Source: Camelus ferus
Taxonomy: Eukaryota
Direction of reading: 5' to 3'
Assembly: GCF_009834535.1 (NCBI RefSeq)
Contig: NC_045696.1
Location: 86,244,001 to 86,308,000, forward strand
DNA: 64,000 nt
Position 1 is the first letter of the stretch, and every line of letters starts with the position of its first letter. Below the pieces are notes generated by a model. The model saw nothing but the letters and a program-made list of their open reading frames with translations, did no database searches and had not been told where the DNA came from. The position numbers and the translations under genes were made by a program. Positions 2,240-59,199 of the stretch are shown here, piece by piece.

Positions 2240-3060
2240 ATTCAGGCATCCCCCATCTTCAGCACTCTTCTCTGATATTAAAAGTTTTATACCCTCTAAA
2301 CCTTCTCAATATCATTCTACCTGGTACATCTTTCCAGTTGCTATTCACTTGAGTGGCTTCAATATCCATTTTGATTAATCTTACATATCCTAACCTCTTA
2401 GTTGTTTTACCTTTCTAAACACTAATGACCTTTATCTCAGCACAACTGCAGCCAACTGCCCACATAGGCTATGTTTTAAATTTCACTCTCATTAAAAATT
2501 GACTTCATCAATATCAAATTCCAGTCTATATCCCTCAGATGACAAACTTGCTGCTTCCTACCTGTATTTCCTGTATTATCTTCCCTCTCTTAAACCCTAG
2601 ATTAAATCAAATGAAAATCCCTGACACACCAGTCTTCTAAAATTCCTCAAAATAGCCACTATTCACAGTGCTCTCTGGAATTCTGATTAGTCATTTCTAT
2701 CCTGGAATAGTCACCGCTTCTTGATGATAGGCTTTTTCTCTCTAAATCTTTTACCACGTTGAGTTCAGAGTAAATTCTGTAAAATGCTTAACAGATCATG
2801 TCAGTTCCCTGATGAAAATCCTTGAATAGCTATTTTTTTTTATCTTTATCTAACTTATTTCCAAACATTTTAAAGGACTGTTATGTTTTTCTCTGTAATT
2901 CCCTCTGTCTAAAATATAAGATTTCCCTGTTTTTTTCATGACTGACATCAACTTACCTTTCCTATGTGAGCTTAGATGGAAAATTCTGTGGGAACGTACT
3001 CTGGCCCACCAAATTCAGATTAAACAACACTCAGGGTATTCACACAATCTTATGTGTCTT
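2240..3060 (+). mobile_element. L2 LINE fragment (interrupted by the L1 at 3064-3974)
   Basis: L2-like blocks such as acagatcatgtcagttccctgatgaaaatccttgaatagct; pyrimidine-rich L2 character. Confidence 0.55.
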
Positions 3061-3063
3061 ATT

Positions 3064-3498
3064 TTTTTTCTAATCGAAGTATAGTTGATGTACAATGTTG
3101 TGTTATTTTCTGTTGTACAGCATAGTGATTCAGTTATACATATATATGCCTTTTCATATTTTTTTATTGTAGGTTATTATAAGATTTTGAATATAGTTCT
3201 CTGTTACACAGTAGGACCTTGTTTGTCTATTTTGTATAGTAGTATCTGAAATCTGAAACTCCTTTATTTATCCCTCCCTTCTTTCCCCTTTGGTAACCAT
3301 AAGTTTGTTTTCTGTTTGTGAGTCTGTTTCTGTTTTGTAAGTAGGTTCCTTTGTATCATATTTTGGATTCCACATAAAGTGATATGTGTTATTTGTTTTT
3401 CTCTGATTTACTTCACTTAGTATGATAATCTCTAAGTCCATCCACATTACTGCAAATGGCATTATGTCATTCTTTTTTATGGTTGAGTAGTATTCCAT

Positions 3499-3549
<51 letters not shown>

Positions 3550-3974
3550 ATACATAGTATACATACACACACACACACACACCTTATTTATCCAGTCATC
3601 TGTTGATGGACATTTAGGTTGCTTGCATGTCTTGGCTACTGTAAATACTATTGCTGTAAACATTGCAGAGCGTGTATCTTTTTGAATTAAAGTGTCCTCC
3701 AGATATATGCCCAGGAATAGGATTGCTGAATCATATAGTATCTCTATTTTTAGTTTTTCAAGGAATCTCCATACTGTTTTCCATAGTAGCTGCACCAAGT
3801 TACATTCCCACCAACAGTGTAGGAGGATTCCCTTTTCTCCATACCTCTCCAGCATTTATCATTTGTGGACTTTTTAATGATGGCTATTCTGACCAGTGTG
3901 AGGTGATACCTCATTATAGTTTTGATTTGAATCTTTCTGATAATTAGCAATATTGAGCATCTTTTCATGTGCCA
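3064..3974 (-). mobile_element. 5'-truncated L1 (ORF2 C-terminus + 3'UTR), artiodactyl-type
   Basis: ORFs 3268..3855 and 3750..3968 give L1 ORF2 C-terminal motifs (HCWWEC, KQPKCPS, MEYYS); T-rich tail at left; probable TSD atgtgtcttatt (3052-3063) / atatgtcttatt (3975-3986). Confidence 0.95.
3499..3582. repeat. Compound (TG)n...(CA)n microsatellite inside L1
   Basis: Directly visible. Confidence 0.95.
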
Positions 3975-4079
3975 ATATGTCTTATTATAGGATTATGAAT
4001 CATTGTTTCACTAAGGTACACTCATTTCTGGTGAATATATTTCCATTTATCTACATTTATATAGTTCTGTACTTATCTA

Positions 4080-5299: not shown

Positions 5300-6790
5300 C
5301 TGGATTTTTTTTTTGGGGGGGGGGATACGCAATTTTCAACATATAATAACAATAAAAAATGATAAAGCATGTGACAGATAAAAGCAATGGCTGATAATCA
5401 AGGGGAAGACAGACAATATATGTGGAATACACAGATGGTCTAGTTACTGGGACTAGCAGATGTAGTCTTTGAAATAACTATGATAAACTTACTAAACAAA
5501 ATTTTTTGAATAAGAAAAAAGCAGAATGAGGGTTTTGAAATAATTATAATCTATTTTAAAAGGAATAAAATGAACATTCTAGAATTGAAAAAAATTAAGA
5601 ACTCACTGATGGCTTCACTAGAAAATAAAGGATCAGTAAACTCAAAGACAGGTCAATAAAAAAATACTCTTAATAAAATATGAAAAGTATTTTAATAGAT
5701 GAAAGGAAGAGACTTGTGAGTTATACCAGAATGGTCGAACTTGTTTGTTAGTGAAATCTCAAAAGGAAACAAAAGAGATAATACGGTAAAAATACTATTT
5801 GAAGTGATAATGGCTGAAAAATTTCAAAACTGATAAGATATCAACCCTCAGATTCAGGAAGTTAGCAAACCTCAAAACCAAAGAAAGCCACACTCATGCA
5901 TAGAAGATAAACCTATTGGTAACCTTAGAAAAAGGTTTAAAAGCAGTCAGAACAAAAAGGCACATTACTTTGAAAGGGCCAACAATATGATAGATAGGTG
6001 ACTACTCAACAGAAATACTGAAAGCCAGAAAGTGATGAAAGACATCTTTAAAATGATACAAGGAAGTAAACACATCTAGAAACATTTGCCCAGTGAAAAC
6101 ATTCTTTAAAAGAGATAATGAAGTAAAGCCTTTTCTAAGCAAATGATGACCAAGGAAATTTGTCACCACAGGACTGCACTTAAAGAAATTAAACACAGTT
6201 CTGGTAAAAGAAAAAGTTCCCAGACAGAAACATGATTATTCAGGGGAAATGAAGACCATCACAGAAGGTAAATATGTAGGTCAATAAAATAAATACCAAC
6301 AAAGAGCAGAATAATTACAGTGTCTTGTAGCATTCAGATTACATTAGGTAAAGCAATGCTTTCCAAAAAAGGAAAAACATTATCGAGGGGAAACAAATTT
6401 TAAAGGATCTAAAGTTCTACAACTTTCAGAATTGGTGAAACTAAGAATTCTTATTTGTTGGAAATGTTAAAGATACATTCAGTAGACACTAATAATAGTA
6501 AAAATATATAATTAGCAAATTAATAGAAGGAAAACAAAATAATACAAATTATAGGTATAAAAGATATAGGATAAATAACAATAAAAGGCATATTTTAGAA
6601 ACACAAAGGAAATATTTTTGATGAAATGACTCCTGGGATTGCTTCAAAATAATCTGGAGGTGAGAGCTATAAATAAGGGAGTATACATAAAACAATATTG
6701 GTCATGAGTTGATGGTAGTTGAAGGTGGGTGATGGATATATGCATATTTATTATACTATTCTCTTGAATTTTGTTACAATTTAAAGAATA
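5300..6790 (+). mobile_element. Ancient L1M/L1ME (or HAL1-like) remnant: degraded ORF1 followed by an L1ME-type 3' end
   Basis: ORF1-like tracts (tttgaagtgataatggctgaaaaatttc; gaaagccagaaagtgatgaaagacatctttaaa); 3' end gattgcttcaaaataatc...ggtcatgagttgatggtagttgaaggtgggtgatgg...attatactattctc. Confidence 0.7.
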
Positions 6791-17294: not shown

Positions 17295-18125
17295 AAGACA
17301 TTTCTCTAAAGAAGACGTAAAAATGGTCAGTAGGTATGCGAAAAAATGTTGACATCACCTGTATCAGACAAATGCAAATCAAAACCACAATGAGGTATTA
17401 CCTCACACCTGATATGATGGCTGTTACCAAAAAACAAAACAAGACAAAAAAAAAAAAAAAAAAAGACAAGAACTATTGGTGAGGATATGGAGAAATAAAA
17501 CTTTGTACACTGGGAATGCAAAATGGTGCAGCCACTATGGAAAGTGGCATGGGGGTTCCTCAAAATATTAAAAATAGAGCTACCATGTGATCCAGCCATC
17601 CCACTTCTGGATATTTATTCAAAAGAGTTGAAATCAGGATCTCAGAGAGATGTTAGTACTCACATGTTCATTTCAGAACTATTCATAATAGCTGAGATGT
17701 GGAAATAACCTGTGTTCATTAACAAATGAATTGATAAAGAATATGTAGTATAAAATGAAATAGTACTCAGCTTTAAGAAAGAAGGAAATCCTGCAGTATG
17801 CAAAAGCACCGATGAACCTTGAGGATACTATGCTAAGTGAAGTACGCCAATCATAGAAGGACAAATATTGCATACTTCCACTTAAAGTGAGGTATCTAAA
17901 ATAGTCAAACTCATAGAAGCAGAGAGCAGAACAGTGGTTGCTGGGAACAAAGAGAATGAGGAAATCAGAAATTAGTGAACCAGTGGAACGTTTCAGTAAT
18001 ACAAGATAAATAAGTTCTAGAGATTTGCTCTGTATAAAATTTCGCCTATAGTTAAGAGTTGTACACATAATCTGTTAAGAGGGTAAATCTTATGTTAAGT
18101 ATTCTTACTGTATTAGAAAAACTAA
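17295..18125 (+). mobile_element. L1 3' fragment (ORF2 end + 3'UTR), L1MA-type
   Basis: ORF 17523..17708 (VQPLWK...[10 protein letters not shown]); aatgcaaatcaaaaccacaatgagg; 3'UTR aagagggtaaatcttatgttaagtattcttac. Confidence 0.9.
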
Positions 18126-19044: not shown

Positions 19045-20370
19045 TTCTTAATTTAATTTTTAATTTATTGAAGTAACATTGGTTTAAAACATTATATAAG
19101 TCCAGTATGAGTTTCATATGTAGTTTATTGAGGTAACATTGGTTTAAAACATTGTATAAGTTTCATGTATTTTGCCTCCTGTATGCACTACAAGTTTCTC
19201 CCACCAACAGTTTATTTTCTGTCTGGCAGTGTACAGTTCACCCCCTTTACCATTTTATCCTCTCCTAAACCACTGTGCCCTCTGGTAACCACTATTCTAT
19301 TTTTGCTATTTATGTGTTTGTTTTTGTTTGGTTTGGTTTCTCCATTTATTTAAATTTTTTCTTAATTTTCATATTCCATATATGAGTGAAATAATATGGT
19401 ATTTTTTCCTCTGTATAACTTATTTTACTTAGCATAACACCCTCAGGGTCCATTCATGTTGCCATGTGTAGATATTTCATCTTTTTTATGCTTAAGTAGT
19501 ATGTGTGTGTATTGTATTTCCCTAATATTTAGTGATGTTGAACATCTTTTCATGTGCATATTGACCATCTGTATGTCTTTGGAAAAACATCTACTCAGTT
19601 CTTTTTCTCATTTCTCAATCAAGTTGTTTGCTTTTAATTGCTTAGTTGAATGAGGAGTTCTTTATATATTCTGGATTTGAATTTCTTATCAGATATATGA
19701 TTTACACATATTTTCTCCCATTCTGTATGTTGTCTTTTCATTTTGTTGATGGTTTCCCTTGTTGTGTAGAAGGTTTTTAGCTTGATGTAGTCCCTTTTAT
19801 TTTTGCTTTTGTTTCCCTTGCCTGAGGAGACATATTGAGAAAGATCTTGTTAAGACTGATGTCAGAGAGCATACTGCCTATGTTTTCTTACATGTGTTTT
19901 ATGGTGTCACATCTTTCATTCAATTCCTTTTTGAGTTGATTTTTGTGTATGATGTGAGATAGTGGTTTAATTTCAGACTTTTACATGTGGCTTTTCAGTT
20001 TTCCCAAAATCATTAATTGAAGAGACTGTTCTTTCTCCATTGTATGTTCTTTGTTCCTGTGCTGTAAATCAGTTGTCCATATATGTGTGTGTTTATTTCT
20101 GGGCTTTCAGTTCTATTGCATTGACTTCGGTGTTCATTGTTCCTGCAAATACCATGCTGTTTTAATTACTACAGCTTTGTAATATAATTTCAAATCTGAG
20201 AGTGTGATACCTCCAGCTTTGTAATTTTTTCTCAGGATAACTTTGGCTATTTTTGTTTTATTTCTGTGAAAAATATCATTGAAATTTTGATAGGGATTGT
20301 ATTATATCTGTTGATTCCTTTAGGTAATGTGGACATTTTAACAATATTATTTCTTCCAGTCCATTAGCAC
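19045..20370 (-). mobile_element. L1 3' segment (non-inverted part of a 5'-inverted L1)
   Basis: T-rich tail at left, L1 3'UTR, then antisense ORF2 (aagagactgttctttctccattg; ttttgatagggattg). Confidence 0.9.
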
Positions 20371-21520
20371 AAAGGACAATAAAAGAATATTATGACGATC
20401 TGTACACTAACAAATTGGTCAACTTAAAAGAAGTGGATAAATTCTTATAAACATACAGTCTTCCAAGGCTGAACCATGAAAAATAGAAAATCTGAATAGA
20501 GTAATCACTAGTAAGGAGATTAACCACCCAGACAAGAAACAAAAGTCCAGAACAAGATGGCTTCACAGGTAAATTCTACTGAACATTCAAAGACAATTTA
20601 ATACTCATTGTTCTCCAGCTCTGTCAAAAAATTGAAGAAGAGAAAATGGTTTCTAACTTATTTTATGGTGCCAACATTACTCTAATACCAAAATCACACC
20701 AAAAAAAGAGAAATTACAGGTAGTATATCTAATGAACACAGATGCAAAAACCCTCAACAAAGTATTCATAACTGAATATAACAATACATTAAAGGGATCA
20801 TACACCATGGGATGCAAAGATAGTTCAGCATCCATTTATTAATCAACATGGTACACCATGTTAGTAAAATTATAAAGATAAAAGTAATATGATCATCTCA
20901 ATACATACAGATAAAGTAATCCTCATTTATGATTAAAAACTTAATAAAATATAAGGAACATGCTTCAATGTAATGAAGACCATATATGACAAACACATAG
21001 CTAGCATCATACTCGGGAAAACCTGAAAGCTTTTCCTCTAAGATCAGGAACAAGACAAGGATGCCGTTTTCTCACCATTCGTATTCAACATAGTATTAAG
21101 TCCTAGCCAGAGCAATTTGGAAAGAGAAATAAATCAAAGGGATCCAAGTTAGAAAGGAAGAAGTAAAATGGTCACTCTCTGTGGATGGCATCATTTTACA
21201 TCTAGAATACCCTAAAGATGCCACTCAAAAACTATTAGAAATAATAAACAAATGTATTAAACTTGCAGAGTACAAAATCAATATGTAAAAATCTGTTGCA
21301 TGTCTATACACTAAAAACAAACTAGCAGAAAGAGAAATTAAGAGAATAAACCTATTTACAATTACAACAAAAAGAATAAAATTTAACAAAGGAGGTGAAA
21401 GATCTGTACCCTGAAAACTATAAGACATTGTTGAAAGAAATTGAAGAGGACACAAAGAAATGGAAAGATATTCTGTGCTCATGGATTGGGAAGATTAACA
21501 TTGTTAAAATGTCCATACTA
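20371..21520 (+). mobile_element. L1 ORF2 (RT region) inverted segment of the same insertion
   Basis: Sense ORF2 sequence (gatggcttcacaggtaaattcta; gatgcaaaaaccctcaacaaa; ctaagatcaggaacaagacaaggatgcc) abutting the minus-strand part. Confidence 0.9.
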
Positions 21521-32265: not shown

Positions 32266-34000
32266 GTCTTATTTTCACTAATCAGAAATGTCTTAATCAA
32301 AAATTAGTATAATTTGTAAACTACTGGCAGAAATAAATTTGAATAATGACCACTTTTATTTTTAACTTATGGTGTCAGATGCTCTCCAAAATTTTGTTGG
32401 GTTGTAGCTCTTAACCCATTAGATCTGACTCCTTTTAGGCAAATTCATGTGCATAATTTGCACCAAAATTATTTTGAGAAGTTCACTGGGAAATCTTCTC
32501 AGTCAAAATTAGACATTTCATGAGATCATTATTCAGATTTTTTAGTTGTCACAGTGCTAACTATTACTCTTTGCTCCACCATGCTTTAGGGAATAGAAAA
32601 TGAGTAACTTAATTACACGTCTTTGTATGCTAAGGCAGTCTCAGAAATGCTTCCTAAGAAAAATCTTGACTTTGCTTACAATAATACTTATGTTTTATTT
32701 ACTGTTAGTTCCAGTTATTTGGTGGAAACATTGAGAGACTTTAAAGCAGATAGCCTAGTGTGGATTCTATAAATTAGTGCTTAGCTAAAGATATACTCTT
32801 CTACTTCTAGTCTGTGGTGGAGAAACATTCTTGGGACAGGCTCTAACAAAAGAAATTAATCAAAGTCGTCACATAAAGAGGATCAATATCAGGAAGAAGA
32901 TGGTAAACAACTGTGTTCCTATTCCACTGAGTGCTATAGAAGATTAATTTGTAGCACAAAGAATTTGAGGTCACCATAAGGAAGCAATTGTTTATCAATC
33001 TGTATAATAATTATCCCAAGGAAGATTATACTATAGATATTAGTATTAGTATTTTTAAAAATGGAGTTAACAATAGGATTTCAGCTTAGTTTCCAAAGCA
33101 AATAAATAGATAATCACTTTAATTTTTTGTATGAATGATTCAGCATTCACAGAATTCTAAATTTAGGCTTGCAATTAAATATTGCATATGGAATGGCATA
33201 AAGTTTTTACGTCAAACTGTTCTCTTTTCTTGTCATGATGAATTACCTATTAAATGAATAATTCAATTGTATTTCAAATCCATTCAGCATAAATCTTCTT
33301 TTGTTATGTTTGCTTAGAAGAGCGTTGTGTTGAGCAGTGTCTACTTATCTTGAGTATAAGAAACCTGAGCTCTGGCAATATTTTTGTCACTGTACCTTTA
33401 ATTTATTATTATTAATTTTCTATATGAGTAATTTTATGTGGTAAAACTATTCGGTAGTTTATAAGTTACATAAAAATGCCTGGAAGCTTCAAGATTTCTA
33501 ATTATCTTATAAGTTGCTCATCATGCTCATTATTAATCCCTGATCTATTATTCATAAGAGCATATCTTGTGAAGTCCAAGGAAGCCTTGGTATAGCCCCT
33601 GGCTTTTTTGCTTTTTAACTCCTAATACTAGGTTTCATGTATAAGAAGTTTTTCTTGCATGTGCAGAACAAACTAGCATTTTCAGTACACACAGTTCTCC
33701 TAGTCTCTGCATAAATGCTTACAGTCTCTGCATAACTGCTAAATCCCAAGTCCTTTGCAGTTAACAAGTGTAACTTTTTTATTGTTGTTCATCCAGAGTA
33801 CCTGAATGAAAAAGTGAGTTTCAAGTATTTTACTGAAGAGATAAGGAATTTTCATCCATGTCAGTACTTTGGATAACTTATACAAGTCATCAAAGCGAGT
33901 GAGAAATTTCTCATGTAATTATGGAAAATCTTGCCTTTTAAATAGGCTGTTGCCTAAAAATAAATACAAATTACTGTCTGACATGTTCTCTCAATCACAG

Positions 34001-34080
34001 GTATCCTTGTTGCCCTACACTGTTGATTGCTACAGATGAGAAATGTTCATTGTTTAGATGCCAGAGAATCAATGTTAAAA
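34001..34080 (+). other. Candidate 80-nt internal exon
   Basis: Branch-like CTGAC (33978-33982), pyrimidine tract and CAG|G acceptor at 34000; weaker donor AA|GTTTGT at 34081; not repeat-like. Confidence 0.35.
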
Positions 34081-34589
34081 GTTTGTCTTTTTTAAAATGG
34101 AAATTCTACTTATGCAAATTGAAGAAAAGAAAAAAATACCAGTTTTGAAACAAACTGAGTTAATTTATGAATATATATACTTTAATGATATTTTGTGGAG
34201 AATGTCAGTTCAAAATTGGTTAGTTCGTAAGAAAAATGTACTAGTTAAATGTATTTTCAAACTATTTACATTTTTTTAAACTTTTTTTATTGAGTTATAG
34301 TCAGTTTACAATGTTATGTCAAATTCCAGTGTAGAGCACAATTTTTCAGTTATACATGAACATACATATATTCATTGTCACATTTTTTTTTTTTGCTGTG
34401 AGCTACCACAAGATCTTGTATATATTTCCCTGTGCTATACAGTATAATCTTGTGTATCTGTTCTACATTTTAAAATCTCAGTCTGTCCCTTCCCACCCCC
34501 CACTCCCTTGGCAACCACAAGTTTGTATTCTATGTCTATGAGTCTGTTTCTGTTTCATATTTTTGTATTTATTTATTTATTTATTTGTT

Positions 34590-34958
34590 TTAGATTCCAC
34601 ATATGAGTGATCTCATATGGTATTTTTCTTCCTCTTTCTGGCTTACTTCACTTAGAATGACATTCTCCAGGAACATCCACGTTGCTGCAAGTGGTGTTAT
34701 GTTGTCATTTTTTGTGGCTGAATAGTATTCCATTGTATAAATCTACCACATCTTCTTTTTCCAGTCATCTGTTGATGGACATTTAGGCTGTTTCCATGTC
34801 TTGGCTATTGTAAATAGTGCTGCTATGAACATTGGGGTGCAGGTGTCATTTTGAAGTAGGGTTCCTTCTGGATATATGCCCAGGAGTAGGATTCCTGGGT
34901 CATATGGTAAGTCTATTCCTAGTCTTTTGAGGAATCTCCATACTGTTTCCCACAGTGG
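34590..34958 (-). pseudogene. L1 ORF2 C-terminal remnant (123 codons including the terminal stop, one internal stop)
   Basis: PLWETVWRFLKRLGIDLPYDPGILLLGIYPEG...KTWKQPKCPSTDDW...MW*IYTMEYYSA...SLICGI*. Confidence 0.9.
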
Positions 34959-35101
34959 CTTTCCTTGCTTCCCTCTCCTACTCTTACTGATTTAGATGTC
35001 TTCTTTTACAATTTTGTGTTTATTCTATTTGTAATTCATGGTAGTTATCACCTTTCCAGTTAAGAGTTTCTCATTTTTGTAGCATCCTGCTTCTTTTCTA
35101 T

Positions 35102-36001
35102 TCATAGTAGACCTGTCAATATTTCTTTTAGCATGTGTTTAGTGTTGCTAAATTCTTGTAGTTTTTGCTTGTCTGTGAAGTTCTTTATCTCTCCTTCTAT
35201 TCTAAAGGATAGCCTTGCTGGATAGAGTATCCTAGGCTGCATCTTTTTTTCATTCGGGACTTTGAATATATCTTGCCACTCCCTTCTGGCCTGTAGTGTT
35301 TGTGTAGAGAAATCAGCTGAAAGCCTTATGGGGGTTCCCTTGTAACTCACTCTTTGTTTTTCTCTTACTGCCTTTAGGATCATTTCTTTATCCTTGACTC
35401 TGATCATCTTGATTATGGTATGTCTTGGTGTGGTTCTGTTTTGGTTCTTCCTGTTTGGGACCCTCTGAGCCTCCTGTACTTGGATATCTGATTCCTTCTT
35501 TAGGTTTGGGAAGTTTTCAGTCATGATTTCTTCAAATACCTTTTCAATCCCCTTTGTTCTTTCTTCCCCTTCTGGAACCCCTATTATGTGTAGATTGGCA
35601 TGCTTTATATTATCCCATAGGTCCCTTATATTGTTTTCATTGTTTTTTGTTTATTTTTCTCTCAGCTGTTCTGATTGGGTGCTTTCTGTTGTCCTGTCTT
35701 CTAGGTCACTTGTTCGTTCCTCTGCATTATCTAGCCTGCTTTGTACAGCCTTTAGGTCAGCTCTCCTCTCAGCAAATGAGTTTACCAGTTCTACTTGATT
35801 CTTTATAGCTTCTATTTCATTTTTGACATATTTTATATCTCTAAACACTATTTCTTTTAGTTCCTTCAGTACTTTGATCACTCCTTTTTTGAAATCTTGA
35901 TCTAGTAGGCCATCAATGTCTATTTCCTTGATCGTGCTTTCAGGGGATTTCTCTTGATCTTTTAGCTGGGAGTGGTTCCTCTGCTTCTTCATATTGCTCA
36001 T
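35102..36001 (-). pseudogene. L1 ORF1p (300 codons, single in-frame premature TAA at 35651-35653)
   Basis: ORFs 35651..36001 and 35102..35524 are in the same frame; the gap translates TKNNENNIRDLWDNIKHANLHIIGVPEGEERTKGIEKVFEEI; ORF1 motifs ENFPNL, QARREWQDIF, YPARLSF. Confidence 0.95.
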
Positions 36002-37335
36002 ACCAGCACTGTGGCTTAAGGAGTATCAGATATTTAGTTCTCCTGGAGACTGTGTGCTTTAAATGATTTTATTGAGAGGTCTTTGTGTCTTCGCCCTGTT
36101 TCGCGAACTCAGCTTGCTGTTTCCAGAGGCCCTCCATTGGCTCCCTCGTCTGTGCTGCTCCCAGTGGCTGTCAGCTAGCAGGTCATGCACCCTCCCAACA
36201 CTGGGTCAGGTGCTGAGCTCTTACCAGGTGGGCGGGCGGGTCACTCCCCTTGCCGATGCCGCAGTCAGACCTGCACTTATGCAAGGCAGGTGGGCAGATT
36301 GTGCCCTCTCCCAGCACCGTGGTCAGGTGCTGCATTCCTGCTGGAAAGTGGGTGGCCGCCCACCCTCTCCAGGCACCAGTCACTCCGCTGCTCTGTGCAG
36401 CTGCCCACTCCACCTCGGGCCAGAGCTCCATAGGCGGGCTCCGGGAAGACCATGGAACAGCCCCGCCCCTGCTCCGTGCCAAATCTCAGCTCCTTGTTTG
36501 CCTTGGTGGTGTGAGTTCTCTGAGGTGCCAGGGCAGAAAGGTCCTATCTGCCTTGGGCTGTAAACAAGTCTCAGTCCTGCCTAGGAGGTTGCAGAGCCCC
36601 AGGTGCAGATTCAGGTCTTGGCCCCACCCCAGCCCAGGTGCTGTGCACAGGAGGAGATGGCAGCTGTGGCTGCGCCCCACCTCTCTTCTCCCAAGAAGCG
36701 CCAGTAATGGTGGCGCAGGTTTGAGGAGACAAAGGCTATGGTACCCCTCCTCCCAGGACACACCAGTGGTGGTGTTCTGCTTTTTTCACAATTTATGGGG
36801 GACCAAGGTTGTTCTACTCCGTATCCCCTCCCAGCCATGGCATGCAGCCCCACGCAGTCCCCCGGGGCTGCCTCAGTGCAGCTGCCCCAGACTTCTGCCT
36901 GGCTTGGGCGGCCTGTCCCGGCCCCAGCTGCTGGCTCACGTCTTAGACTGGGTGTTGCAGGGATTGCTCATGCCCGTTTAACTTAGTACTGTCAGTCAAG
37001 GGGTGCTCGGGGCAGATCTGAGCCTCGAAGGCTCCCCCTCCATCCCGTTGGGCTCTCCATTGGAGGGCGGAGACCCAGGGAATGAGCATTATTCCTCCTT
37101 TGCTGCTCCCTCCCCATGGGACCGATCTTAAACTGTTTTTCTTTTTCTTCTTTCTTTTTCCCTTTTCTCCTACCAGATTTTTGGCGTCTTTGTCTTTCGA
37201 AGAGGGCGATGTTCTGTCGGAGTTCGGTAGGTGCTCTGGTTGGCTGAGTGGGTCTGTAGATGTGAGTTTTGGTGTATTTGTGGGAGAGGGTGAGCTACGA
37301 GCGTCCTTCTACTCCACCATCTTGCTTCTCTTTCC
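36002..37335 (-). promoter_or_regulatory. L1 5'UTR / internal promoter (GC- and CpG-rich)
   Basis: Only extended GC-rich block in the window, many retained CpGs, lies directly upstream of the ORF1 ATG. Confidence 0.85.
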
Positions 37336-40300
37336 TCAAACTATATACATTTAAATAAAAGTAATATATGTGTCTCAATAACATTTGCTGTAGTTAGGTA
37401 AAACTTGCACCCCAAGAATCAGCATGAGTTTTTAAACTAAAAGGTAAAAATGCTATAGTGTCTTTTTAAAAAATATTCTGTCCCCAGAATTAGTCCTTTG
37501 AGTTTTTTCGGGGGGGGGGCGCAAATAATATTTGTAAAATCAAATAACTTATAAATAACTTAATTAGTACTACATAAAAATTAGTGCAGTGAAACATATA
37601 ATTGTGATTGATTTACATAATTAGCCAGGTGGAAGTTAATATGTTGATATTCATATTACCTGATATATTTTAATATCATTATATTTATTCTAAAAAGATT
37701 AAAAAATACATAAGAATTTTGAAAGATATATATTAAGATATTTTGAAACATCATATTTTCACGAAGTCTCGATTACTAGATCCAATATTTAAAATACTAA
37801 GACCCTACAGTAAATAAATCCCAAAAACAGCTATGTGATTTCTTGAACTATTTAATCACCATGATACTGAGTATTTTAATCATCTAATATATATTCTTTG
37901 TATGTAAAATCATATTAATGCTTGGGAAAACTTTTGAAATTAAACCACAAATTATTGTACTTACAAGAAAGCATGCCTAGATTATCACTCATAATTAAAC
38001 CAAGTGAATATTTATGATGTATATATGTGTTTGGTTCAGTTTTTTGCAGATCTTCAAAATCAATATTTTTAATCAGCTTAATAATATCTTAAGCAGTCTA
38101 CCTCAGATCTTGAATAATAAATAAATTTGTGGTTTTCTTATATACCACATTTTTACTTTTGGAACACCAACAATCTTGCTAAGATGCTTAAGTCATATGG
38201 AATGTAAAGCCACAAAATATGGCAATTTTTAGTTAGATATACCAAGCAACTACTGATATTTCAGAAAAAATGAAGGTATGCATTTCAAACTAGGTCATAT
38301 TTCAAAATGTTATCTCATTGTGTACTTTAAAACAATACATGTATAATGTTTTATCATAAGATGCATTTTTGAACACTTCAGTGACCACCAGTCCTTTAGA
38401 ATTATCAAGCCATGTATATAACTAAATATTATGGAAAACAGCCTTAAAATTGACAATTTTGTTTGGGTTGCAAATTACTTTGTAAGGATCTATTTTCCTG
38501 ACAACTCTCCACTAAAGTTAGTTTTTGGATTTATTTTTCCTAATCTGTGATTTGCTGAGCATAATGTCAGAGATCTGATAGTTTAAAAATACTAAAATTC
38601 TCTTTCAGAAGAAGGGGTGTACTAAAATTAATTTATTAAATTTTGCAACTCAACTCTGGGAAATAAAGCATGCTTTTTCTAAAATAATGCTGCCTATAAA
38701 TGCATGTGTTTGGTGGTTGTTTCAGTTTATTACACAGCAAATTTGGCTCCTTATTTCAGCAGTATTTCCATCAGACAGCAGCAGCTCCAAATTCTGTGAG
38801 CTTCTATATTGTTGGTCTTAATAAGCATTATTCACTTTACCTTCACCAACAGAATATCTTACAAGCTCATAAAATATACATTTTTCAGAAGTGAATAGAT
38901 GGCACTATCTTCTTGTGGTTTCCTTTTCAAATTGTGGATAGCCAGAGGCTCAGGAAATACAGGGATGGCATCAGTCTGCTGTATTTTAGACAGCATGAGA
39001 TATTTTTTTAAAATCAGCAAGTTTCAATGGATCAAATTAAGAACGGTAAAAGAAAAGAAAAGCCAACAGTACTGACCAAATACATGATAATTCATTTTTG
39101 TAATATATGTTTGAGTCAAAGATGTTTGTTGTGTGGAATATTACAGGAGAATAAAACTTCCTCTGCAGTGTGCTTCCCAAGAGACCACCATATCTGGTTC
39201 TTCTGCATGATGAAGGGGAAAATGAACTCTTGTACCTATAGTAAAGAAAGAAAAAAAAATCATGTTGAAGATATTTAGCTACTTTTATGTCCTGAAAAGT
39301 GAATGAACAGTGGAACTCTAAGCATGATACTATGGGAACAAAGTGGCATGGGGCGAGGGAGGCATCCAATTTGTGGCTGTGCTTTAGCACTTGTGGGCCA
39401 CTGTGGTAACATTTGCTGTGCTGGCAGAGTTCATTTACTAAATAGACTGTGAACTGCAAGAGCAAATGCATATCCCAGATGTAAGCTGATATTCTCTTCT
39501 CACAATTAGAACCAAGCACAGTTTAAACACATTTCAATTACCTGTAATTTGCATGTTTTTGTTTAAGAACATTCATCTTCATCACCTTACTGTAACATTT
39601 TTATTTCAGCAAGGCAGGTAAAAAGCAATCACATTTAGAACACATTCAAGAATGATCAGGTGTTTTCATCTAGTATAGATTTAAAGTAACATTCCAACAG
39701 CAATTAATAGAGTATGAAATGTTACAAATTGGAAAAGTTTTGTAGAAGTCTAATATACAAATTTCGGGATAAGTTCTTTTTGAATAATGACATAATATAT
39801 TTAGTGATATTTTCAGTTTTTCATCTCCACTATATAAAAGAGAAAATTGAATCTCAACACTCTCCAGTAATCCTAAGACATAATATTTTATCATCATTTA
39901 CTAAACAGGAATATAGCTCCTGGTTTTGCACTAATTTTAAATAGACTAAATCAAAAGAAGGTACACTTTTAGCCCAATATATAAATCTACTTCTTGTTAT
40001 ATGCTTACCTCTGTGGTAACCAGAGAAGGTAGAAACAATCTTGAGTGCATTCCATGGCAACAAATTATCTAAAAAATATAGAAAAACATTTTTTGTTCAG
40101 TAGTTTCATTACTTTGAACTGCTGTCTGCCTTAATATTTTATTTCCATGTGAACAAATTTTGAGCACATCAAAATGCTAATCAGTTGTCAGAAAAATAGT
40201 TATTCCATGCAGATTTCTCTTCTGTGGGAGCAAACAGAAGGATCACCTGACGTAACCTACAATAACATTTTCCTCCTAATGGGCAGAGTCTATCTGTTGT

Positions 40301-56545: not shown

Positions 56546-56828
56546 CTATAAGCAGAATGATGTTTTAGATATCGTGGAGGGTAATAAGAGAAATCAGTAT
56601 GCCATTTCTTCTTAAAAGAAAGTTATATGCTAATTAAATTGTTTATATTAACTTTACACTGCTCATTTTTAATATGGCTTTCATGTGTTTTCAAATTATA
56701 TTTGAGTCTTATTAAATGTCATTGAAATACAAAATGTGATATTTTAAAACAAAAATACTATATAGAATATAAGGAAAATAATGAAGATATAGAAATCACT
56801 TAATTTAATAATCCTACTTTGTTTCTTT

Positions 56829-57904
56829 TTTTTTTCTTTTTTTATTGAAGTATAGTTGATTTACAATGTTGTGTTAGTTTCAGGTGTACAGCAAAGTGAT
56901 TGTTCTTTTTTAGATTCTTTTTCATTATAGGTTATTATAAGATGTTGAATATAGTTCCCTATGCTATATAATAGGTTCTTATTTATCTATTTTATATGTA
57001 GTAGTGTGTATCTGTTAATCTCAAACTTCTGATTTATCCCTCCGTCTGTTTCCCCTTTGGTAACCATAAATTTGTTTTCTATGTCTTTGAACCTATTTCT
57101 GTTTTATAAATAAGTTCATTTGTGTCATTTTTTTTTAGATTCCACATATGTGATACCATACGATATTTATTTTTCTCTGTCTGGCTTCACCTAGTAAGAT
57201 AATCTCTAGGTCCATCCATGTTGCTGCAGATGGCATTGTTTTATTCTATTTTATGGCTGAGTAACATTCCATTGTATGTATATACCACTTACTCTTTATC
57301 CACTCATTTGTCAGCGGACGTTTAAGTTGCTTCCATGTCTTGGCAATTGTAAATAGAGCTGCTATGAACACTGGGGTACATGTATCTTTTTGAATTAGAG
57401 TTTTCACCTTTTCCAGATATATGCTTAGGGGTGGGATTGCTGGATCACATGGTGACTGTATTTTAAGTTTTTAAAGGAACCTCCATACTATTCTCCATAG
57501 TGGCTGCAGCAATTTGCATTCCCACCAACAGTGTAGGAGGGTTTCCTTTTCTCCACACTCTCTCAGACATTTATTATTTGTAGACTTTTTGATGATGGCC
57601 ATTCTGACCTGTGTGAGATGATACCTTATTGTAGTTTTGATTTGCATTTCTCTGATAATTAGCAATGTTGAGCATTTTTTCATGTGCCTCTTGGCTGTCT
57701 GTGTCTCCTTTGGAGAAATATCCATTTAGGTATTCTGCCCATTTTTTAATTGGATTGTTTGTTTGAGCTGCTTTTATATTTTGGAAATTAATTCCTTGTC
57801 ATTTGTGTCATTTGAGAATATTTTCTCCCTTCTGTAGATTGTCTTTTCATTTTGTTTGTGATTTCCTTTGCTGTGCAAAAACTTTTAAGTTTGATTAGAT
57901 CTCA

Positions 57905-57935
<31 letters not shown>

Positions 57936-58650
57936 GTTTTGTTTTGTTTTTGCTTTTCTTTCCAATACTCTAGGAGATGGATCCAAAAAAAATAATATTG
58001 TATTCTATGTCAAGGAGTGTTCCGCCTATGCTTTCCTCTAGGAGTTTTATAGTATGCAGTGTTACATTTAGGTCTTTAATCCATTTTGAGTTTATTTTTG
58101 TATATGATTGTAGAGAATTTTCTAATTTCATTCTTTTATATGCAGCTCTTGTGTTTTTCCAGCACCATTTATTGAAGAGACTGTCTTTTCTCCATTGTAT
58201 ATTCATGCCTCCTATGCTGTAGATTAATTAACCATAAGTGTTTATAAGGGTTTATTTCTGGGCTTTCTATCCTGTTCCATTGATCTGTGTGTCTGTTTTT
58301 TGCACCAGTACCATACTGTTTTAATTACTGTAGCTTTGAAGTATAGTCTTAAGTCAGGGAGCATGATTCCTCCAGCTTCGTTCTTCACACTCAAGATTGT
58401 TTTGGCTATTTGGGATCTTTTGCTTTCCATACAAATTGTAAAATTATTTGTTCTAGTTCTGTGAAAAATGTCACTGGTAATTTGATAGGGGTTGCATTGA
58501 ATATGTAGATTTCCTTAGATAGTATGGTCATTTTAACAATACTGATTCTTTCAATCCAAGAACATGATATATCTTTCCATCTGTTTATGTCATCTTCAGT
58601 TTCTTTCATCAATATCTTGTATTTTTCAGAGTATAGGTCTTTTGCCTCTT
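56829..58650 (-). mobile_element. 5'-truncated L1 (1.8 kb; ORF2 3' part + 3'UTR), artiodactyl-type
   Basis: 20-bp TSD taatcctactttgtttcttt (56809-56828) / taatcctattttgtttcttt (58651-58670); ORF2 fragments 58406..58612, 58242..58430, 57970..58206, 57471..57725 ([27 protein letters not shown]); poly-T tail. Confidence 0.97.
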
Positions 58651-59199
58651 TAATCCTATTTTGTTTCTTTGAGAAAAATTCACACCCTAAATGGCCTCTA
58701 ATAACAATATCTATCCATAAAACTTATATTGACAAGCACTGGCTGATACATTTCCTTGAATATTTTAGTTTTTTATCTTAAATTCCTTAAGATTTTTTCC
58801 ACTCTTTCTATTCTTTTGATTTCCTTCCTCAGTAAATGTAGAAAAATGCTGGATATGCAACAGATGTTTATAAAAGAACTATTTGATGCAGAAATTGATC
58901 AGTTAATCATTCTTCATCTTCTGTTCTGAATTGGACAGTTGATTGAGTTTTCAAATGTCAAATATTCAATATTATGATCAAGAACATTGGTCCCACATCT
59001 GATAGTAGCAGACAAAATATGACTAACCCAGCACCCTTGAATTGTTATAGACTGCTTACTGTTACCTAGTGCTTCATCTATGATAGAAGCCCAGTGGACT
59101 GGAGAGAACTCTCAGTAAACACATTGTTAATCGCAGCTTTTGGCCTTAACCCCGGTGTGTTCTCTTTGTTATATGAGTTGGAGAAAATTTGAAATATAA

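Follow-up and report, generated by a model that had tools for sequence, protein, structure and literature searches.

Families of half-L1 elements (HAL1s) are said to have been described by Smit in 1999 and by Bao and Jurka in 2010. They have originated repeatedly in mammals according to PMC5753468, and the pig has one, HAL1_Ssc, according to PMC6501411; as portrayed in PMC5753468 and PMC13756887, HAL1s are amplified families that combine a 5'UTR, an ORF1, an L1 3' end and a TSD with the loss of endonuclease (EN) and RT. The splicing of L1 RNA and its subsequent re-integration are also established, for the SpIREs of Larson et al. 2018 (PMC5860796); the SpIREs described there carry a deletion within the 5'UTR or from the 5'UTR into ORF1, have a 3' break after AG, and keep ORF2. 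Cultured cells also yield L1 insertions with an internal deletion, which have both ends, a TSD and an A-tail but lack the middle, and the account in PMC3414825 offers cis preference as the reason that short internally deleted L1s form no family. The long-intergenic-region L1s of the pig, as represented in PMC6501411, are full-length consensus sequences with a complete ORF2 and spacers of 390-529 bp (67-68 bp in two subfamilies), and ORF2 is about 3.8 kb in mammalian L1s (PMC5381506, PMC6501411). General background on L1 can be found in parts of PMC5203782, PMC2912911, bioRxiv 2024.08.27.596794, PMC6726744 and PMC13756887.

Here we describe an L1 of the camelid lineage that has kept ORF1, lacks EN and RT, and lies within one TSD pair. 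The insertion occupies the minus strand at 37335-34274 (3,062 bp) of the window, i.e. the whole 64,000-nt stretch of camel DNA that was analysed, and its parts are listed in Table 1. All hallmarks of target-primed reverse transcription are present: the TSD, which is the best direct repeat between the element's two ends, an A-rich cut site that agrees with the L1 endonuclease consensus (as given in PMC5860796), and an A-tail. A preliminary description of this DNA had listed a TSD, a full 5'UTR, a 300-codon ORF1 with one stop and about 140 nt of spacer, followed by a jump to the last ~123 codons of ORF2, a 3'UTR and an A-tail; we find each of these parts where it had been placed, and EN and RT are indeed gone, ORF2 being reduced to its last 123 codons. 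Its characterization of the 5'UTR as CpG-rich stands insofar as CpG o/e is enriched over the flank (0.35 vs 0.11), although the 5'UTR is CpG-rich only in part. We take the stretch at 37324-37317 in the 5'UTR to be a YY1-site-like motif. By eye, the start of the 5'UTR looks like the 5' end of pig L1B1 in supplement 1 of PMC6501411. The copy is dead, as a full ORF1p and any ORF2p are beyond its coding capacity, and we interpret it, with modest confidence, as a single internally deleted camel L1. An origin from two separate insertions was ruled out by the single TSD pair and the absence of an inner A-tail. ARAGORN detected no tRNA-type genes across the window, and no Rfam match was obtained in 1-34300 or 34700-64000.

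Table 1. Parts of the L1 insertion, ordered from its 5' to its 3' end, in window coordinates
Feature	Position	Strand	Remarks
TSD, 5' copy	37336..37352	minus	17 bp direct repeat, 1 mismatch
L1 5'UTR, full length, 1,334 bp	36002..37335	minus	GC 57%, CpG o/e 0.35
ORF1, 900 nt, coding for 299 aa plus the stop; codon 117 (35653-35651) is a premature TAA	35102..36001	minus	
Inter-ORF spacer, 5' part, 141 nt	34961..35101	minus	35000-34960 alignable to pig L1B1 spacer
Junction AG	34959..34960	minus	A assignable to either side; G most likely from ORF2 Gln codon
ORF2 3' end, last 123 codons including stop; internal TAG at 34745-34743, no frameshifts	34590..34958	minus	
3'UTR, polyadenylation signal and decayed A-tail	34274..34589	minus	Matched by the 3' ends of other window L1s
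TSD, 3' copy	34257..34273	minus	Paired with 37336..37352

The ORF1 product contains the trimerisation, RRM and CTD domains (Pfam PF17489, PF02994 and PF17490, all above cut-off), and it is 85-89% identical to P0002/P0003 and 61% identical to pig L1 ORF1p. The ORF2 remnant is colinear, and its identity to four ORF2 fragments, of which two bear the label Camelus dromedarius, is 84-92%; its closest named matches among those listed are the Camelus dromedarius L1 ORF2 fragments KAB1282936.1 and KAB1274901.1, at 89%. A UniRef entry labelled painted turtle (P0130) is 91-92% identical to the remnant, above the Camelus-labelled matches, and its label is probably mammalian contamination or a mislabelling; an entry labelled Delftia sp. 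(P0048) is likewise an L1 ORF1p. Elsewhere in the window, an old C-terminal ORF1 fragment at 5928-6191 (plus strand) is 30-35% identical to P0002/P0008. Decay of the two coding parts was compared by counting private amino-acid changes, which number 13 in 251 positions of ORF1 (5.2%) and 9 in 113 of the ORF2 remnant (8.0%; Fisher p=0.34); the counts were taken against different reference sets, three close relatives for ORF1 and four for the remnant, and leave out the remnant's last 9 codons. By this small test the remnant appears to have undergone no detectable extra decay relative to ORF1, though its rate is nominally higher, and the private changes suggest a nucleotide decay of about a few percent since insertion. 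An ATG that overlaps the ORF1 stop (ATGA, 35105-35102, minus strand) shares the reading frame of the ORF2 remnant; such a match of frames has a one-in-three chance of occurring, and ORF1 of pig L1B1 ends in TAA with no such overlap in PMC6501411. A fusion frame coupled to the ORF1 stop and leading into the remnant was ruled out, as two stops intervene.

On the ORF2 side of the break, the junction contains an AG at 34960-34959, as the preliminary description had stated. Self-BLAST matches the element to three L1 3' ends of the window (57.5 kb, 3.8 kb and 17.5 kb); every match starts at 34960, and each of the three reads GCAG/C at the homologous point (the slash marks the break), which confirms the earlier count of CAGs at this place. 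These 3' ends belong to older, 5'-truncated L1s at 56820-58700 (minus), 3060-3980 (minus) and 17360-17900 (plus), which are 66-80% identical to the 3' part of the element. Two further L1 ORF2 pieces lie in opposed orientation within 19500-21520 (20363-19512 minus and 21389-21520 plus), possibly as a 5'-inverted insertion. The coincidence of the junction AG with the CAG of three other L1s is what would be expected had a donor in the spacer been joined to the CAG of ORF2 and the resulting ORF2-less RNA been retrotransposed in trans (whether a single time or in a family), an origin that we consider improbable. The deletion does end at a conserved CAG, but this CAG is the codon for the Gln that precedes the conserved PLW of ORF2, a position occupied by Q in 108 of 120 homologues (another residue in 11 and unplaceable in one; best 120 of 7,990 matches). 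Because the CAG encodes this Gln, its recurrence among L1s reflects protein constraint and is therefore uninformative on splicing, and the idea that it is conserved as a splice signal was rejected. Two of the pig L1 consensuses given in PMC6501411 (supplement 1) spell the same codon CAA. As an acceptor the site appears weak, with 6-7 pyrimidines in the 20 nt upstream of the CAG in the three window L1s, and over 1,520 nt of ORF2 (57.1-58.7 kb) 34 of 44 YAGs, the junction site included, have an equal or better tract when graded by a crude pyrimidine count. AG begins at 7.2% of positions in the same stretch of ORF2, and the sharing of the junction AG with the window L1s appears to be not far beyond chance expectation.

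The spacer side of the break was studied with the pig as the nearest readable relative, its L1s serving as a proxy for the camel parent although their ORF1p is only 61% identical. Supplement 1 of PMC6501411 yielded 46 passages, from which four of ERV text were dropped, and the remaining 42 L1 consensus spacers were read by eye. The camel stretch 35000-34960 can be aligned gap-free with the spacer of pig L1B1, 29 of 41 positions being equal, and at four other places in the supplement 13 of the last 14 camel spacer bases are equal and are followed by T (both by eye). At the position that corresponds to camel 34959, these pig spacers have T in 40 cases, A in two and G in none. Because they have no G here, the junction G was most likely contributed by the ORF2 codon and the A alone is shared, so that the microhomology at the join would amount to about 1 nt. 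A splice origin requires the register G/GT, and GT occupies the two positions directly after the break in 0 of the 42 pig spacers. Of the 42, 20 do have a donor-like GT, placed 2-3 nt upstream of this register (13 GAG/GT, 6 GAA/GT and 1 GGA/GT), which lends the splice origin some plausibility, but a cut at this GT could not produce the camel junction, as it would require an acceptor AG where ORF2 reads GC. Twenty of the pig spacers (places 23-42 of the supplement) have a donor-like GTAAAT just before the T-rich tract, absent in places 1-22; one lineage of pig L1s may here have acquired a cryptic donor. The GT sites of the pig show that a donor can arise here, and one in the right register could have been acquired by a camel lineage. 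For camelid spacers we presume, purely as a prior, that they have no donor at this place and resemble the pig type that continues with T.

Additional observations bear on whether the ORF2 region was removed by splicing. A donor-like site that agrees with the consensus at 7 of 9 positions lies farther upstream, at 35051, and was retained in the element. The known SpIREs of PMC5860796 have lost 5'UTR or 5'UTR/ORF1 sequence and kept ORF2, whereas the camel element has kept its promoter and dropped ORF2, and its acceptor appears weak; moreover, a splice origin requires the trans route, which is less favoured than cis. The AAG/GT donor that had been proposed to be spliced to the ORF2 CAG is thus unsupported, given the poor acceptor and the 0/42 count of G/GT in pig spacers, but it is not refuted, as the pig is only a proxy. 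A plain deletion is the more likely cause of the ORF2 loss, and we regard as extremely unlikely the fullest version of the splicing model, in which a camelid L1 gained a spacer donor that was spliced to the Gln-codon CAG, and the product re-transposed with borrowed ORF2p and founded a family. Camel DNA with the spacer or ORF1 was looked for and not found among viral contigs, GTDB contigs, plasmids and phages, and a metagenome scan returned two loci, at 67% and 55%, neither of the element's lineage. One locus from the metagenome scan (L001, 1-1149) is a mammalian L1 with a short spacer, in which the start of ORF2 is broken by about 700 nt; the interruption holds two inserts in opposite orientation that look SINE-like by eye.

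The internally deleted L1 that we favour can be accounted for in a few steps. A full-length camelid L1 was inserted by target-primed reverse transcription, to which the TSD, the endonuclease-type site, the intact 5' end and the A-tail attest; ORF2p would have acted in cis from the full-length RNA, so that a trans step would be unnecessary. Between the spacer and codon -123 of ORF2, about 3.7-3.9 kb is missing, a size estimated from the lengths of pig and other mammalian L1s, and the pig spacers suggest that about 1 nt of microhomology bridged the two sides. The likeliest route would be a jump between templates, or repair by end joining, as the copy of the full-length RNA was inserted; a later genomic deletion is an alternative timing that would be identical in appearance. 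Decay has since introduced one stop in ORF1 and one in the ORF2 remnant. The insertions recovered in cultured cells (PMC3414825) resemble the camel element in having both ends, a TSD and an A-tail with the middle missing, and like it they do not require a separate family. They differ from it in that the camel element is an old germline copy, whose deletion may have occurred during or after insertion.

We also considered that the locus is one copy of a camelid HAL1-like family, founded by a master that had suffered a deletion unrelated to splicing and copied by ORF2p in trans, which we judge unlikely. The parts that such a family would need have been retained (a full 5'UTR, a full-length ORF1, a 3'UTR and an A-tail), and HAL1s have precedents in the repeated mammalian origins of PMC5753468 and the pig HAL1_Ssc of PMC6501411. 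A multi-copy family would also be likelier than a singleton to turn up in a random window, and the decay of the remnant is nominally above that of ORF1. Against these points, the remnant is colinear and free of frameshifts, and the difference in decay is not significant, which makes a long independent history unlikely. No second copy of the junction was found by self-BLAST in the 64,000-nt window. Peptides that span the junction gave no candidate copy either: in the sense frame, none of the 120 homologues listed (of 7,990) has a spacer-derived N-terminus, and the antisense frame yielded three unrelated weak matches, both comparisons being almost powerless with no start codon upstream. Our search of literature listings found no ORF1-only L1 from a camelid; name searches returned L1-2_Vpa and HAL1_Ssc and no camelid HAL1 name, and the main text of the camel TE survey PMC8605555 mentions neither ORF1 nor HAL1. 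Most likely, the internally deleted copy is unique or nearly so, as we presume.

Collapse of the interior of L1s is a known failure of short-read assembly. The genome could accordingly contain a full-length or differently broken L1 at this place, the middle of which was collapsed in the assembly, but we think this very unlikely. The window contains no N, and a mis-join based on overlap would need a long shared word, while the two sides of the join seem to share only 1-2 nt. Sequencing runs leave room for such an error: among 24 listed rows, the best DNA or unlabelled runs number 14, carry three organism labels and contain 70-74% of the words sampled from 33000-38600, shares that cannot show that the junction exists. 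Six RNA runs hold 9-36% of the sampled words, and the shares of both groups are uninformative, the words being common to other L1 copies.

In its workings the element is comparable to an internally deleted L1, and its gene content is that of a HAL1, ORF1p being the one protein that it specifies, with one stop in the ORF1 of this copy. It shares with the HAL1s of PMC5753468 and PMC13756887 an ORF1 without EN and RT, a 5'UTR, an L1 3' end and a TSD, and its further copying would, as for a HAL1, need ORF2p in trans; however, HAL1s as described there are amplified families, whereas the camel element is known from one locus and contains a colinear ORF2 remnant of 123 codons. With the SpIREs of PMC5860796 it has in common a deletion within a retrotransposed L1 and a 3' break after AG. 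With the long-intergenic-region L1s of the pig in PMC6501411 it shares an ORF1p of about 300 aa (61% identical), a similar 5' end and a homologous long spacer, and it differs from these full-length consensus sequences in having lost most of ORF2. We have filed the element under neither HAL1 nor SpIRE, as amplification is defining for the former and a donor in the parent for the latter.

The element is real and of an ordinary kind, and as a lone internally deleted L1 it is of minor importance. Were the junction to recur at multiple loci, it would mark a HAL1-type family young enough for its birth junction and its parent to be read, and it would help to settle both the origins of HAL1s and how an ORF1-only RNA evades cis preference. 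Were a splice origin true, it would represent an extra route by which spliced L1 RNAs escape their dead end, as the product, unlike the 'dead on arrival' SpIREs, would have kept its own promoter and ORF1, and it would provide a HAL1-type family with a splice origin whose junction is still legible.
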